A stretch of 39,644 nucleotides of DNA from a virus (taxonomy: Duplodnaviria > Heunggongvirae > Uroviricota > Caudoviricetes): the IMG/VR virus record IMGVR_UViG_2718218133_000003. One strand, 5' to 3'. The notes beneath the pieces are model-generated. The model saw only the letters and a list, made by a program, of their open reading frames with translations. It had not been told where the DNA came from and searched no databases. The position numbers and the translations under genes were made by a program. The number at the start of each line of letters is the position of its first letter. The first letter of the stretch is position 1. This document shows, in pieces, positions 1 through 39,644 of the stretch.

Positions 1-1
1 A

Positions 2-1297
2 TTAATTTTTTATTGCTTCGTTATGGGGCATGGTTGGGGCAAACTCGCTTAACTGTGTATTTAACAAAGCTACCTGTGCATTATTGTTTTCAGACATCCA
101 TTTTCCGTATACCTGAAATACCATTTGCGCATCTGCATGGCCCATCTGGTTTGCTATAAATGCCGGGTTAGCACCAGCTGTCAGCGACCAGCAGGCATAA
201 GTATGTCTCGACTGATATGATTTTCGATGGCGGAGTCCGGCACGTTTTATCGCTGCGTCCCACATCTGCCTTATTGAGTCAACGGTAAAATGGTCACCAT
301 AATTTTTTACTCTCGCTGACACTTCAGGTTGAAAAACAAAGGTGCATTTATGTTTTTCTGTTCTGCCATACTCTCTGAGGTGAACATCAATGATATGCTC
401 TTTGCTCAGTCTCGTTAATGTCATCTGACTCCGGAGAGCGTCGATTGCTGGCTTAATAAGATGAATGACCCGATTGGTTCCCGCCTGTGTTTTTGGTACC
501 GTGAAACGGTCTTTTGCTAAATTTCTCCTGATCATCATTGTTCCATTTTTCAGATCTATGTCCTCCCATCCAAGTGCACACAGCTCACCAGGGCGAACGC
601 CAGTATAAACAGAAACACACCATAAATTTTTGGCTTGCTGATTTCTGCACGCATCGATAAGACGGATGAATTCCTCCCGCGAAAGAGGATCCGGAATGGT
701 TCTTGATTCCTTTAATGGCGAGATCCCCTTAAACGGGTTATCTGCCAGGTAACCGTTATCAACACCAAACTGGAACACGGCGTTAAGATTTGTCATGTAA
801 TTATTTACAGTTACAGCCGATCTCCCTGGTTGTGTAACAATATAGTTACTTTTGGGGATCTGGTATCCAGTCAGTAGCTCTTTACGAACCTCCAGTAATT
901 TTTCTTTATTAATCGATGAGGCAAGATTTTTTTCACCGATTATGCTCAGGATATTTTTGATGACGGCACGGTATGTGTTGAGTGATGTTTTTGCGACTTC
1001 AGTTTCTTTCAGTGCCAGAAATTTTTCAGCCAGTTCTTTTATGGTTAAATCTTGTCGGGTCTCACCAAATTTTTCCAGATTGCGTGAGGAGGGAAACTGT
1101 TTTGCATAGTCGAAAACACCAGTTTTTATTGCGTAACAAACAGAGGCGCGTAGCTCACCTGCAACGCGCCTGTTTTTTGCTGTGTCAGGAACCCCCAGGT
1201 TTTCCCTGACTCTTACGCCTTTATAAACAAACCAGATACGTAATTTCCCTCCATGGTTTTCCACGCCTGTCGGATATTTCATTTCAATTTCTCTCAT
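2..1297 (-). CDS. int: Phage integrase, tyrosine recombinase family
   Basis: 431-aa ORF at prophage end, transcribed toward the end as in lambda; C-terminal R..H..R..Y-type catalytic region (HTYACWSL...QMGHADAQMVFQVYGKW). Confidence 0.9.
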   Translation of the reverse strand: MREIEMKYPTGVENHGGKLRIWFVYKGVRVRENLGVPDTAKNRRVAGELRASVCYAIKTGVFDYAKQFPSSRNLEKFGETRQDLTIKELAEKFLALKETEVAKTSLNTYRAVIKNILSIIGEKNLASSINKEKLLEVRKELLTGYQIPKSNYIVTQPGRSAVTVNNYMTNLNAVFQFGVDNGYLADNPFKGISPLKESRTIPDPLSREEFIRLIDACRNQQAKNLWCVSVYTGVRPGELCALGWEDIDLKNGTMMIRRNLAKDRFTVPKTQAGTNRVIHLIKPAIDALRSQMTLTRLSKEHIIDVHLREYGRTEKHKCTFVFQPEVSARVKNYGDHFTVDSIRQMWDAAIKRAGLRHRKSYQSRHTYACWSLTAGANPAFIANQMGHADAQMVFQVYGKWMSENNNAQVALLNTQLSEFAPTMPHNEAIKN

Positions 1298-1316
1298 TAG
1301 TTAGTGTGGCTTTTAG

Positions 1317-1568
1317 TCAAGTAAGATGACGTCTTGGTCTTGCTGATGCCTGGCGCTCAATCCAGCGATCAATTTCTTCCAGGTTGTAAAAGCATGGACT
1401 GTTATCCCATGGCATACCGTCATGAGCGACATGCTTATATTCCCTTCCTTCCATAAACGATTTTTCCCGGGCCTTTTTTAACGTACCTTTTTTTATTCCT
1501 TTCAGCGCAATTAACTGCTCTTCGGATACCCATTTGCCGGGAGAGACAATCATGATTACTTCGCTCAT
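1317..1568 (-). CDS. xis: Excisionase-like small DNA-binding protein
   Basis: 83-aa ORF immediately upstream of int on same strand; basic, REY.H-type motif resembling phage Xis proteins. Confidence 0.6.
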   Translation of the reverse strand: MSEVIMIVSPGKWVSEEQLIALKGIKKGTLKKAREKSFMEGREYKHVAHDGMPWDNSPCFYNLEEIDRWIERQASARPRRHLT

Positions 1569-10620: not shown

Positions 10621-11490
10621 TCAGATATCTTCATACTGTACGTAAGAAATATTTGAGCCTCTGATACCATAATCTTCTAAACTGCCTGATTTTTTCTCAC
10701 CTCTATATAAAGCAACTATCCATCGAGCATTTTCTTGGATGCTTTTATTTATTTCAGTAAAGTATTCACCGTCAACTTCGGCGAGCGAGTGGCCTAAAAC
10801 GATGACCTCGTCCACATTTTTAAGCGATGAGAAAAAAACGTTTTCTTCTTTAATTATGTCTTCGCTGGGCTTGAATGTATTACCGAAGTATTCGTTTATT
10901 CTGTCGTATGCCTCTGCTATTCTTGTATCTTGATCCGGTCCTATATATGGATTTAGTGACTTTTCCACCCTAAAACTATGACCAAGTATGAGATCGTCAT
11001 CGTAACTACAATTGCCGTGAATATGTATGATTTGCTCGTCTGGAACGGCATAGATCTGCTGCAAGGTATTTGTATAATTAAATGAAAAATAGATGCTTTC
11101 TCTTGGTATGGGCGGGATGTATTGCTTAGGATTGTAAGCATCGGCTATGTTAATCCCTTTAACCCAATCAGCGAATTGCTCCTTCAAACGAGCTGACAGC
11201 ATTTGTGTGATTTTATTTACTTCATATTGGTAATCGTGATGATAAGCATCGCTCCAATCATCGGTATTGTATGAAGCCAAAAATATCTCACTGTTTTGAA
11301 GGATAAGCTCATAATCAATTTCACCTAAAGCATTTTCTAACTCATTCCACTCGTCCCCAGCAGGAATGTATTCTTCTATCGCGTCATATAGATCTTGGTC
11401 ATTTTTTTCTACATACGACTTAAAGTGCTTGTATCCTGTTGGTAAGCCATGACGCATGTCAAATCCATTTCCTATTATGTAAAGCCTCAT
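10621..11490 (-). CDS. AbiH-like abortive-infection family protein (candidate defence component)
   Basis: Start MRLYIIGNGFDMRHGLPTGYKHF matches the IIGNGFD..HGL N-terminal signature recalled for AbiH (Pfam PF14253); AAGGGA Shine-Dalgarno; AT-rich. Confidence 0.6.
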   Translation of the reverse strand: MRLYIIGNGFDMRHGLPTGYKHFKSYVEKNDQDLYDAIEEYIPAGDEWNELENALGEIDYELILQNSEIFLASYNTDDWSDAYHHDYQYEVNKITQMLSARLKEQFADWVKGINIADAYNPKQYIPPIPRESIYFSFNYTNTLQQIYAVPDEQIIHIHGNCSYDDDLILGHSFRVEKSLNPYIGPDQDTRIAEAYDRINEYFGNTFKPSEDIIKEENVFFSSLKNVDEVIVLGHSLAEVDGEYFTEINKSIQENARWIVALYRGEKKSGSLEDYGIRGSNISYVQYEDI

Positions 11491-12105
11491 TGTTTTTCCC
11501 TTAGTCGAATTGTATAAAAATACTAACATGGCCTGCTCCACGTTGACTACTATCCCCTCCTTTGAGTAATGCCTTCATCAGATGTAACAACATTTGCGAG
11601 CTTCCACAGTTCGCTCAAAGCGGACTAGAAGGTTAGCTTGCGTCGGACTTGGCGTATTTAAAGAAGTGCTGGTGGAGACTGGTTGTTGTGTTCCATTTCT
11701 ACAGAACAAAATCACAGAAACTATACCCAATAGTTATATTGAATCAATGATGAGACAGCCTCATATTTATCAGGACTGGTGTACGTCCAATACAGGAGGT
11801 TGTCGTGCTGGTTCTCAAATGTGCGCTAGCTATTGCGGCTGTAATGGCAATTTATTGTCTTGCTGTTGTTCTTACGGATCGCCTTTCTGATTGATTTTAT
11901 ATTGGCGAGGTGACGTGAGTTAAGTAGAATTGCTGCGGGTGCTTGAGGCTATCTGCCTCAGGCATGAACACCAAAGGCAGATAGAGAAAAGCCCCAGTTA
12001 ACATTACGCGTCCTGCAAGACGCTTAACATTAATCTGAGGCCAATTTCATGCTAGACACATGTAGGTTAGCCTCTTACGTGCCGAAAGGCAAGGAGAAGC
12101 AGGCT

Positions 12106-15397: not shown

Positions 15398-15473
15398 GGC
15401 CCTTTAGCTCAGTGGTGAGAGCGAGCGACTCATAATCGCCAGGTCGCTGGTTCAAATCCAGTACAGCGCGCCA
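15398..15473 (+). tRNA. tRNA-like sequence (ileX/ileZ-like, anticodon CAU) with non-complementary acceptor stem; probable pseudo-tRNA
   Basis: D-arm GCTC-AGTGGTGA-GAGC, anticodon loop CTCATAA, T-arm GCTGG-TTCAAAT-CCAG and 3' CCA are present, but 5' GGCCCTT cannot pair with 3' ACAGCGC. Confidence 0.5.
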
Positions 15474-25735: not shown

Positions 25736-26536
25736 ATGCAGGCAGGTCACCAGAGTGACGCGGATATTTATATTTATGACGAGATTGGTTTCTGGGGTGT
25801 TACAGCGAAGCAGTTTATCAGTGATCTGAATGCACTGGGCGATATCACCCACATTAATCTCCATATTAATTCACCGGGTGGCGATGTCTTTGAAGGCATC
25901 GCCATTTTTAATGCACTGAAAACACATGGTGCGTCCATTACCGTTTATGTCGACGGTGTGGCGGCGTCAATGGCGTCGGTCATTGCGATGGTGGGAAACC
26001 CGATCATTATGCCGGAAAACTCCTTCATGATGATTCATAAACCATTTGGCTTTACGGGCGGTGATGCGGAGGACATGCGCACCTATGCCGACCTGCTCGA
26101 TAAAGTTGAGGCGGTTCTGTTACCCGCTTATGCACAGAAAACCGGGAAAACCACCGATGAAATTGCTGCCATGCTGGCGGATGAGACCTGGATGTCCGGT
26201 GCCGAATGTCTGGCACAGGGATTTGCTGATCAGGTGACACCAGCCGTTAAGGCAATGGCATGTATTCAGTCAAAACGTACAGAGGAATTTAAAAAGATGC
26301 CGGAATCCATTCGAAACATGATTACTCCGCCACGCAACAGTGCTCCACGCGTACAGGATGATGAACCTGCAGCCTCCCGGACGCCAGTGCAGGCAGCAGC
26401 ACCCGTGGTGGATGAAAACAGTATCCGTGCGCAGGTACTGGCAGAGCAAAAAGCGCGTGTAAACGGTATTAATGATCTGTTTGCCATGTTTGGCGGCGTT
26501 ATCAGATCACGAAGGATAAATGCAGCAAATGCCTGA
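25736..26536 (+). pseudogene. Head maturation protease (ClpP-like), 3' end truncated and fused across a deletion junction
   Basis: ClpP-type motifs (INSPGGDVFEG, GVAASMASVIAM); the frame runs into sequence that in another frame encodes the gpL C-terminus. Confidence 0.6.
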
Positions 26537-35912: not shown

Positions 35913-36206
35913 ATGGATATAACACCTTTCCTTCATGCACTTTGTGCTGTGGCTGCGCAGGTACTGGTTGGCCTTTTTACCGGAAACTGGGTTTACGGTG
36001 CGATAGCCGGTTGTACGTTCTTCATTGCGCGTGAACACACCCAGGCAGAATATCGCTGGATTGAAATGTTCGGGCATGGCAAGCGAATGAATATGCCGTG
36101 GTGGGGCGGTTTTGATCTACGCGCGTGGGATGTAGCAAGCCTGATGGATTTTGCTGTGCCGGTGGTGGCGTGTCTGCTGGTCTGGCTGTTGGTTAATCGT
36201 GTGTGA
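35913..36206 (+). CDS. Hypothetical small membrane protein
   Basis: Hydrophobic segments at both ends; GGGTGGG upstream; unknown function. Confidence 0.4.
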   Translation: MDITPFLHALCAVAAQVLVGLFTGNWVYGAIAGCTFFIAREHTQAEYRWIEMFGHGKRMNMPWWGGFDLRAWDVASLMDFAVPVVACLLVWLLVNRV

Positions 36207-36433
36207 AAAAAGGTGAGCTGTATATGCAACGGAGGAAGAAACCCCGTTGCTGGAAGCATGGAAAAAGTATCGGGTATTGCTGAACCGTGTTGATACGTCA
36301 ACTGCACAGGATATTGAATGGCCAGCACTGCCGTAGGGTAAAACATATAAATTCTATAATTAGATGTATCTTTCCATTTACGGCAAGGAAGGGGGCTTGG
36401 AAGACGTAAAGCATCTCACACCGAGATTATTTT

Positions 36434-37024
36434 TTATATGTCAGGTGTCTGAAGTTTTGCTTTGGCTCTTAAAATGGTTTGCCGCGAGGTTTTGAATTCC
36501 CGGGCAATGGCACTTATACTTACACCTGACTTAATTCGTTCGAATACCACCTGTTTCTGTTCTTCATTTAACACAGGTGGTCGACCAAAACGTTTCCCTG
36601 CGCCGCGGGCTCTTACTATCCCGGAATGAGTGCGTTCAAGTAAAAGGTCTCGTTCAAATTCAGCGACTGCTGAAATTACTTGCATCATCATTTTTCCTGT
36701 TGGACTGGTCAGGTCAATGCCACCCAATGCTAAGCAATGCACTCTGATACCTGTTTCGGTCAGTTGTTCCACTGTTTTCCTGATATCCATTGCATTACAA
36801 CCAAGGCGATCCAGTTTTGTCACAATCAATTGATCACCACATTTCAGGCGAGCAAGCAACCGGTTAAAACCAGGACGCTCACTGGTTGCTGCTGAGCCGC
36901 TAATGTGTTCTTCGATTATTTGCTGAGGTTTGATTTTAAAACCTGCACTTTCGATTTCCCGGCGTTGATTTTCGGTGGTCTGATCCAGCGTTGATATCCG
37001 ACAGTAAGCAAAAATTCGAGACAT
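36434..37024 (-). CDS. pinQ: Serine recombinase / DNA invertase (PinQ/PinR-like)
   Basis: 196 aa; N-terminal catalytic motif [10 protein letters not shown]; C-terminal HTH; position after the tail fibre genes as in Qin/Rac. Confidence 0.85.
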
Positions 37025-37340
37025 AGTGAGACTCTATACGAAATTGGTGTTCATATCATAATGCATCTCAGAAAATAATTATGATTATTTTTGTGCATAT
37101 TTGTATGTACACGTTCGAAAATAAACGAATGCGTATGCAACCCCGTAATTTTGGTGAGACCCAAAATCGATTTTGTGAAAAAAGGCTTTAACTCGGTTTG
37201 TTTTTCGAGTTCCGGGCGGACTCAAGGAAGAAGAATAGTGTTGCGTGTTATTTTAACCAGATTTCAAGTTGTTTGGTCGTGGAAAAGTGGAGCAAAATGT
37301 TGTTAAAGTGGAAAAATGATAAAAAAGTAAGTTTATTATA

Positions 37341-37574
37341 TTACATTTTACCATTTAAATTTTGGTTGTCTTTAAGAACTGATATCGCTGTTTGTAATAA
37401 TTCTTTGTTATCCAGCCATGATTTTTTCTTTATGTTTCCTTCAATGTAATCAAGCAATGTTCTGGTATTGATAGGTCTTCCCTGTTTTGCTACTTCCACT
37501 ACAGCATCCCCTAGGATAATTCTTACTTCAGGAAGCTGCGCAGGGAACCACTTTAGGGTGTCTTTTGATTTCAT
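37341..37574 (-). CDS. ydfK: YdfK/YnaE-like small protein (77 aa)
   Basis: 77-aa product from MKSKDTLKWF...; position next to pin at the prophage edge as in Qin/Rac. Confidence 0.5.
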   Translation of the reverse strand: MKSKDTLKWFPAQLPEVRIILGDAVVEVAKQGRPINTRTLLDYIEGNIKKKSWLDNKELLQTAISVLKDNQNLNGKM

Positions 37575-38360
37575 GAAGATATTCCTTAAAATATTATTGA
37601 TTTTCATTGCGATATTGTATGTCTGATTCAGGATATGTTGACTTATACATCGGTTTTGTCTGGGTTATTGGATATGCCAATCCCTAATTTTATTAGGGCA
37701 TGACTAAAAATGCTGAATATGATAAGGAGAGATGTGATTATCAGTATGCTGTTCATATAGCCTCGAATTAGTAATGTGTTATATATGATATAGTTGACAA
37801 TTTTTATCTTGGGTGTTCTTAAAGTTCGTAGATAAACATTGTCGTTTCAGGTATACAGGAATGCTAACAGGTGGCAGCAAAAATCAGGCGGTTTATGGCG
37901 CAAGCTGAAGCGGCAACTGTAAACTATCTTATGCAGAGACTCTACACGGATTGGGTTTAAAAGTATACATAGATAACAGTTTTTATCTGAAAAAGAAAAA
38001 TATCAAGGTGATATAGCCTATATGCCTTTGATGCGGAGGAATGAATGTGATGGGAGTGATGTATCTGAATAGTTGAAAAACCGCAGACACGCCTTATGCA
38101 AGAACGTGCTGCGGTTGGCTGGTAAATTTTTCGATAGTGTGAGTATTGAATGATTTCCAGCCGTTCTTGATTTTACGCATAAATCCATGAAAAAACTACT
38201 TATCTGTTGGGGAGTTTTTTTTGGGGCATATATGGGACAGAAATAGGCCCCAGATAGACACTGAGATCGAACTTAGGATGCTTTTTAAAAAATGCAACTA
38301 TCTGAAAAAACCTAGAAAACGCCAAGGAAACCACAGGATGGGAAAAAACACCTGTGAATT

Positions 38361-39644
38361 ATGGATTTCCAGTTATATTCGCTCGGCGCAGCGTTAGTGT
38401 TTCATGAAATATTTTTTCCTGAATCATCAACGGCAATGGCGTTAATTCTGGCAATGGGAACCTACGGTGCAGGTTATGTGGCGCGTATTGTCGGAGCATT
38501 TATTTTCGGCAAAATGGGCGACAGAATAGGGCGTAAAAAAGTACTCTTTATTACCATCACCATGATGGGGATCTGTACCACCTTAATTGGTGTGTTACCG
38601 ACCTATGCACAGATTGGTGTTTTTGCACCCATCTTGCTGGTGACGCTGCGTATTATTCAGGGATTGGGTGCAGGTGCGGAAATTTCCGGTGCCGGTACGA
38701 TGCTGGCGGAATATGCGCCAAAAGGTAAGCGCGGAATTATCTCCTCATTTGTTGCTATGGGGACTAACTGCGGAACCTTGAGCGCAACGGCAATCTGGGC
38801 CTTTATGTTCTTCATTCTCAGTAAAGAGGAACTGTTGGCGTGGGGATGGCGTATACCGTTCCTGGCGAGCGTTGTCGTGATGGTCTTTGCTATCTGGTTG
38901 CGTATGAATCTGAAAGAAAGCCCGGTCTTTGAGAAGGTTAACGACAGCAATCAACCGACAGCAAAACCTGCACCTGCTGGTAGCATGTTCCAGAGCAAAT
39001 CCTTCTGGCTGGCAACAGGGCTGCGTTTTGGTCAGGCTGGTAACTCAGGTTTAATTCAGACTTTCCTTGCAGGCTATTTAGTGCAGACGTTATTGTTTAA
39101 CAAAGCAATTCCAACAGATGCATTGATGATCAGTTCGATTCTCGGCTTTATGACCATTCCGTTCCTTGGTTGGTTATCCGATAAAATAGGTCGCCGGATC
39201 CCGTATATTATTATGAATACCTCTGCGATTGTGCTGGCGTGGCCAATGCTTTCTATCATCGTAGATAAAAGCTATGCCCCGAGCACCATTATGGTTGCAC
39301 TGATTGTGATTCATAACTGTGCGGTGCTGGGATTATTTGCTCTGGAAAACATTACCATGGCAGAAATGTTCGGCTGTAAAAACCGCTTTACCCGGATGGC
39401 TATTTCTAAAGAAATTGGTGGTCTTATCGCTTCCGGTTTTGGTCCTATCCTGGCGGGTATTTTCTGCACCATGACGGAATCCTGGTATCCGATCGCCATT
39501 ATGATCATGGCATATTCAGTGATTGGTTTAATCTCTGCGCTGAAAATGCCAGAAGTGAAAGACCGTGATTTAAGTGCACTGGAAGATGCCGCGGAAGATC
39601 AACCGCGTGTTGTAACAGCAGCGCAACCTTCAAGAAGTCTGTAA
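38361..39644 (+). pseudogene. ydfJ: MFS transporter (metabolite:H+ symporter family, ydfJ-like), missing about 40 N-terminal codons
   Basis: Homology to ShiA/ProP-type transporters begins at the very first codons (LGAALVFHEIFFPES...); an in-frame stop lies immediately upstream and no upstream frame encodes the missing segment. Confidence 0.75.

Follow-up and report, generated by a model that had tools for sequence, protein, structure and literature searches.

The right end of the stretch that we analyzed (39,644 nt, hereafter the window) almost certainly carries, at positions 38355..38372, the right junction (attR) between a Qin-type lambdoid prophage and the E. coli gene ydfJ, into which the prophage has inserted. 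The last 1284 nt of the window (38361..39644, plus strand) are an open reading frame of 427 amino acids corresponding to residues 29-455 of YdfJ, an MHS-family MFS transporter. These residues are identical (427 of 427, 100%) to the same part of the intact, 455-amino acid YdfJ of strain ST648, in which the gene is uninterrupted in the order rspA-rspB-ydfJ-ydfI. At the DNA level, the ungapped identity to uninterrupted ydfJ starts at 38359, and everything to the left of that position is unrelated. Particularly, the remnant lacks exactly 28 codons (84 nt) plus the native upstream region, and the absent N-terminal residues (MTIEKHERSTKDLVKAAVSGWLGTALEF) include the start of TM1. The initial annotation of this DNA had proposed a right prophage junction with a 5′-truncated host MFS gene, whose homology would begin abruptly at 38361 behind an in-frame stop codon, and our results bear out both statements. 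The ydfJ frame is closed on the phage side by a TGA at 38355-38357 (plus strand), only one codon (ATT) separates it from the ATG at 38361, and more in-frame stops are found farther upstream. The loss of N-terminal codons was also correctly anticipated, but it amounts to 28 codons and not to the suggested 40 or so. Nor had an N-terminal segment been overlooked in another frame, as searches of the whole window in all frames with the missing 84 nt or 28 residues (blastn-short and tblastn) returned chance-level matches only.

An alignment of attL, attR, and attB delimits the core of the attachment site, that is, the crossover region, as 11 bp shared by the three (TTATGGATTTC), located in the window at 38359..38369 (no strand assigned). 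The core is present as a single copy in the window when both strands are searched, and in exactly two copies, one per prophage end, in the 49.8-kb locus of strain 2021CK-00607 (L006). Around it, an extended imperfect att covers 38355..38372 and reads TGAATTATGGATTTCCAG in attR, TGAATTTATGGATTTCCAG in attB, and TGAATTTATGGATTTCAAG in attL; in their longer contexts the sites are cTTGAATTTATGGATTTCCAGtt (attB), cTTGAATTTATGGATTTCAAGag (attL), and cTGTGAATTATGGATTTCCAGtt (attR, from the window). With its imperfect flanks the att measures 18 bp in attP and attR and 19 bp in attB, and the two halves into which BLAST splits an attB probe overlap by 19 nt, which is the att sequence. The flanks of TTATGGATTTC differ among the sites by a T indel on the left and a C/A difference on the right, and both sort as expected, which fits an exchange within the 11 bp. 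In ydfJ, attB occupies codons 27-32, and the ATG at 38361 sits inside the core and is Met29 of YdfJ; it is because the core happens to contain this codon that a 427-amino acid ORF survives. An att site had been expected just upstream of 38361, with a direct repeat inside 38300..38360. The place was right, although the core overlaps the ATG and is not strictly upstream of it, and the repeat spans 38359..38369 instead of lying within that interval. The predicted empty-site attB junction is ...GAATTTATGGATTTCCAG..., and that of the circular attP is ...GTGAATTATGGATTTCAAGAG.... An att of 18/19 bp is defined for ydfJ prophages in the legend of S7 Fig of PMC8112680, where the attP-flanking region was sequenced from strain 11368 via PCR; as far as that legend goes, the published att and the one described here are of the same length, the likeness being one of length.

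The left end of the prophage is represented in the window from the integrase inward. An intact tyrosine integrase gene (2..1282, minus strand), the counterpart of the K-12 intQ pseudogene, codes for 426 amino acids with an arm-binding domain (Pfam Arm-DNA-bind_2, 5.5e-24) and a catalytic domain (Phage_integrase, 3.8e-18), and its DNA is 98.97% identical over 1..1161 to the IS2-truncated pseudogene of strain J53. It is adjoined by an excisionase gene (1317..1568, minus strand; Pfam DUF1233, putative excisionase, E 1.6e-31), annotated in relatives as well. The left junction itself lies outside the window and was read from two relatives, L004 and L006, rather than from the source genome; their left ends are identical to the window at 100% (L004, first 1500 nt) and 99.99% (L006, first 11,388 nt), and at least 15 genomes show 100.0% BLAST identity over window positions 1..1500. 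In both relatives the order to the left of position 1 is rspB, a 57-nt spacer, and the ATG and codons 1-28 of ydfJ, followed by TTATGGATTTC, 36 nt of phage DNA, and the stop codon of the integrase. Hence the missing N-terminal codons and the matching core are found where they had been supposed to be, beyond the left end of the window, the left copy of the core lying 37-47 nt past position 1. The sequence expected after it in the left flank of the source is AAGAGTCAT.... According to a reading-frame check, the fused 5′ ydfJ ORF at attL stops after 42 codons. The attL of K-12 J53 has the same order of rspB, ydfJ codons 1-28, TTATGGATTTC, phage DNA, and integrase.

The junction is not a product of chance. 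The L006 prophage is 99.99% identical to the window besides two indels, and when the DNA between its cores was removed in silico we obtained the uninterrupted locus of strain ST648 with 0 mismatches over 2251 nt. The proposed comparison with an uninterrupted ydfJ locus thus supports the junction, and the in-silico excision leaves no scar. Moreover, joining the left flank of L004 to the right flank of the window yields an ORF of 455 codons. The core-to-core length of the element is 38,405 bp.

In lambda-type tyrosine recombinases, Int binds to arm and core sites and strand exchange takes place within the core. By analogy with that system, from which we take both the chemistry of the recombination and the functions of the arms, the integrase encoded at 2..1282 would have recombined the phage attP with the bacterial attB in ydfJ, with strand exchange inside the shared 11 bp. 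The resulting attL would have retained codons 1-28, the ribosome-binding region, and the link to rspAB just beyond the left end of the window, and attR would have kept codons 29-455 behind phage DNA carrying the in-frame TGA. Precise excision by Int and Xis would then give an intact ydfJ again.

The remnant is most likely non-functional, and the transporter function has presumably been lost with the first half of TM1. Its fold is still recognized (Pfam MFS_1, 2.3e-37; Sugar_tr, 6e-25), but MFS_1 matches the remnant only from profile position 33 onward, as opposed to position 2 for the intact YdfJ, so that about 30 positions are missing, and with 28 residues gone the N-terminal helix bundle is incomplete. 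PGAP annotates the remnant in relatives as a pseudogene with the N-terminus missing. We regard it as very unlikely that the 427-amino acid ORF is instead a working, shortened transporter, started at Met29, transcribed from the phage side, and kept under selection. Such a reading could draw on the ORF being unbroken in the six interrupted loci examined (6/6), in which PGAP flags nothing other than the missing N-terminus, and on ydfJ RNA being differentially expressed upon induction of DicC in E. coli (PMC11430063). Nevertheless, a scan for promoters and terminators (37000..38600), in which site counts did not exceed those of shuffled sequences, detected no promoter-like site on the plus strand across 37600-38360, and by eye we found no Shine-Dalgarno motif of the GGAG/AGGA type in the approximately 15 nt before the ATG at 38361. 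Pairwise dN/dS values could also be taken as favoring a working protein, as they are 0.00-0.02 for the remnant vs 0.08-0.20 for the intact neighbor ydfI. We rejected purifying selection on the remnant as the cause of these low values, because identical alleles exist in the intact state: many intact ydfJ genes of other strains show 100% identity to the K-12 allele once it is excised in silico, and the intact gene of ST648 does so to the allele of the window. The synonymous divergence therefore arose while the gene was still intact, and it is silent on selection in the truncated form. The integrations, or excisions regenerating ydfJ, are recent relative to this divergence. For annotation, the window's last 1284 nt belong to the host, with the prophage ending at 38358/38369, and ydfJ is best called a 5′-truncated pseudogene (Δ1-28) and not a 427-amino acid transporter.

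It is very improbable that 38359 belongs to a cluster of tandem or nested prophages as one of its internal junctions, with a left boundary that is not host DNA. PMC8112680 describes groups of two to four prophages at ydfJ in O157:H7, and the phage arm of the window contains a core-like motif (TGAATGATTTCCAG, 38148..38161). Against this, host ydfJ extends rightward from 38359, and in relatives ydfI, ydfZ, and rspR come after it. Four genomes match the window at 100.0% (BLAST) at both prophage ends, and in L006, the one of the four that was examined, rspB is directly to the left of the integrase. Furthermore, the window contains a single copy each of the integrase, terminase, and J genes (the names being taken from the annotation of the near-identical L006). 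Even less credible, to the point that we dismiss it, is a truncation by deletion, an IS event, or illegitimate recombination at the prophage edge in place of site-specific integration: IS1 and IS2 are active nearby (IS1 at 38064..38072 in strain IMT16316 and within the rspB-ydfJ span of strains NDM2 and "10", IS2 interrupting K-12 intQ) and the prophage does have internal deletions, but no ydfJ sequence was lost and the gene is rebuilt exactly from the core and the fragments on its left and right, which rules out deletion or IS-mediated truncation, the breakpoint is the same in clearly different prophages (L002, L003, K-12, and the window), and it is flanked by an 11-bp direct repeat with an integrase/excisionase pair adjoining.

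Turning to the phage side of the integration junction, the interval 37610..38360 had been described as AT-rich and non-coding. It is indeed AT-rich, with a GC content of 37.3% compared to 47.7% for the window and 46.5% for the ydfJ ORF, but it is not devoid of genes, and rather than an empty spacer it comprises ynfT, an orphan terminator, the scar of a DinI-like gene, and att-arm sequence. Closest to the junction among the sizeable phage genes is ydfK (37341..37574, minus strand), identified as an ORF and annotated in relatives as coding for a cold shock protein. It is followed by ynfT (37643..37756, minus strand), which encodes a 37-amino acid small protein of the YnaM/YnfT family (Pfam YnaM, E 1.5e-26) and is likewise annotated in relatives. 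After ynfT, approximately 320 nt are without a credible ORF. The ydfK-ynfT module and about 360 nt past ynfT (37300..38118) are 99% identical to the module of a Rac-type remnant that in strain ECCNB20-2 adjoins uspF/ompN. The sharing of the module up to 38118 places a mosaic boundary at about 38081-38118, where the att-arm-specific sequence begins. A hairpin resembling an intrinsic terminator, followed by UUUUU, is located at 38074..38116 on the minus strand (-20.7 kcal/mol, z -3.6); none of 200 shuffled sequences folds as well, and the hairpin is conserved in the alignment of ydfJ prophages. In the STEC prophage L003 the same hairpin sits after an 80-amino acid DinI-like gene (L003 2766..3008; Pfam DinI, E 1.2e-17) located between the att arm and the terminator. 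This gene is gone from the window and from K-12, which leaves the hairpin orphaned, and alignment with related prophages puts the scar of the absent gene, of about 80 codons, at 38162..38215 (no strand).

From 38191 to 38358 (approximately 170 nt, no strand) extends the phage-side arm of attR, which is conserved across different ydfJ prophages and is predicted to be the P arm of attP, where Int and IHF would bind. Homology of unrelated ydfJ prophages to the window runs from 38081, 38095, or 38222 onward to the core, and in L003 there are only about 130 nt between the start codon of the DinI-like gene and the core. We found no arm-type repeats shared by the P and P′ arms above chance; the counts of the candidates CAACTAT(C/T)TGA and (T/A)TGGGGCA(T/A) were within the range of shuffles, and the repeats in 37600..38420 were short two-copy families in about the number expected by chance. 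The TGAATGATTTCCAG motif mentioned above resembles the att minus its central TTATG. Four different ydfJ prophages conserve the motif, whose L002 version reads TGAATAATTTCAAG and corresponds to the attP-type right side. The motif could be due to chance, a 9-mer repeat being expected about once in 821 nt, or could represent a further site for the integrase or what is left of a prophage-in-prophage recombination. From 34800 to the end, strain IMT16316 shows 100% identity to the window apart from its IS1, which is inserted with a 9-bp duplication of the target in the stretch separating ynfT from the att arm. An Rfam scan of 36000..39644 (E<=1) gave sub-threshold matches only (IS009, 65.8 bits against a gathering threshold of 117; CssrB, 25 against 76; and mir-263), with nothing credible in 37600..38400. 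The IS009 match (36204..36302, plus strand, E 6.6e-14) has the tail-fibre region on one side and the pinQ invertase gene on the other.

The junction is already known and is an ordinary one, namely the published integration site of Qin and the PPydfJ prophages. ydfJ is the site of Qin in strains W, K-12, B, and Crooks (PMC3032704), the integration of Qin strips 28 N-terminal codons and the promoter from ydfJ (PMC6379469), and a lambda-like prophage of strain SE11 is listed "between ydfJ and rspB" (PMC2608844). The statement of the initial annotation that Qin interrupts ydfJ in K-12 therefore agrees with the literature, and we found the same junctions in C600 and J53. Qin of K-12 and the prophage of the window share the host gene, the breakpoint after codon 28, and the core; the attR of K-12 C600 and the attL and attR of J53 match over approximately 80 nt, with two substitutions in the phage-side arm of the J53 attL. 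Both elements have the ydfK-ynfT-pinQ module at the right end, with 99% identity. On the other hand, K-12 Qin is 20.5 kb long (PMC6379469) and the element of the window approximately 38.4 kb, IS2 cuts the K-12 integrase at the position that corresponds to 1161 of the window while the integrase and the excisionase of the window are intact, and the window carries terminase, portal, J, and tail-fibre genes but has a capsid-tail deletion of its own, of 8.4 kb. The prophage is a longer relative of Qin and not that of K-12, with about 99% identity to the latter at both ends.

The STEC prophages of the PPydfJ type (O26:H11 strain 11368; Nakamura et al. 2021, PMC8112680) also integrate in ydfJ via an 18/19-bp site, and the phage-side arm beside the core is conserved in them as it is in the window. 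They differ in carrying a DinI-like gene and effectors such as nleC beside attR, whereas in the window the DinI-like gene is deleted and no effector is found. The Int-Xis system of lambda is similar in its arm-binding integrase, its adjacent excisionase, and its short identity core, and also in the layout, with int next to one att arm and the longer arm on the far side. Its integrase has a different arm-binding family from that of the window (Arm-DNA-bind_2, 426 amino acids), and the lambda attB is intergenic, unlike the ydfJ attB, which is inside a coding sequence that the insertion inactivates. The likeness to the lambda att is read here from the sequence, in which arm-type sites do not exceed chance and the search identified no IHF sites. 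Rac, at the 5′ end of ttcA, is another lambdoid insertion in the 5′ part of a host gene, and has the paralogous ydfK/ynaE-ynaM module near its right end, like the ydfK-ynfT of the window. However, Rac supplies a replacement N-terminus and leaves TtcA complete (PMC6379469), while the Qin-type side supplies a stop codon and leaves YdfJ truncated.

Compared with the near-identical prophage of L006, the window is without 8,364 bp (L006 27917..36280, missing at window positions 26506..26507). The deletion runs from inside a gene fusing a ClpP protease and the major capsid protein to inside the gene of minor tail protein L, and the four best-matching complete E. coli genomes have 100.0% BLAST identity to the window and yet possess the additional 8.4 kb. 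The window does carry terminase, portal, J, and tail-fibre genes, as named from the L006 annotation. Since the 8.4 kb of the capsid-tail region are missing, the element is defective for particle formation, but its integrase and excisionase are intact. At 11380..11388, within the ORF 10621..11541 (minus strand), the window has the empty target of an IS1 that in L006 splits this AbiH-family abortive-infection gene, with a 9-bp duplication; the gene is uninterrupted in the window. Downstream of the antiterminator gene there is a phage-borne tRNA-Met (anticodon CAT; 15399..15473, plus strand), which is annotated in L006 too.

Finally, we surveyed the site in 5426 complete E. coli genomes, 5425 of which were matched by a megablast of 37300..39644, with homology starting across genomes at 37300, 38081, 38095, 38222, or 38355. 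A 211-nt attB probe was unsplit, indicating an intact ydfJ site, in 2009 of the 5426 genomes (37%), and was matched only as its left half, its right half, or both in approximately 3360 (about 62%); the integrase region of the window is present in 3050 genomes. Qin has been found in 48% of 638 strains (PMC6379469). The ydfJ site is thus polymorphic in the population and ranks among the E. coli sites that prophages occupy most often.

The retention of an intact integrase and excisionase in a defective prophage might be regarded as the sign of a reversible switch for ydfJ, of the "active lysogeny" type. In that case excision would restore ydfJ, rejoined to rspAB upstream and ydfI downstream. Bearing on this possibility, identical alleles occur in both states of the site within the same lineages, the majority of the genomes given above have a split site, and the in-silico excision of L006 is scarless; we nonetheless consider a switch very unlikely. 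The insertion parts ydfJ-ydfI from rspAB, in a neighborhood that has been associated with the catabolism of sugar acids (mannonate/gulonate-type). No prophage splits ydfJ in strains NDM2 and "10" (hits H101 and H102), and an IS1B is located between the end of rspB and ydfJ, which may represent an independent route of disruption of the locus.
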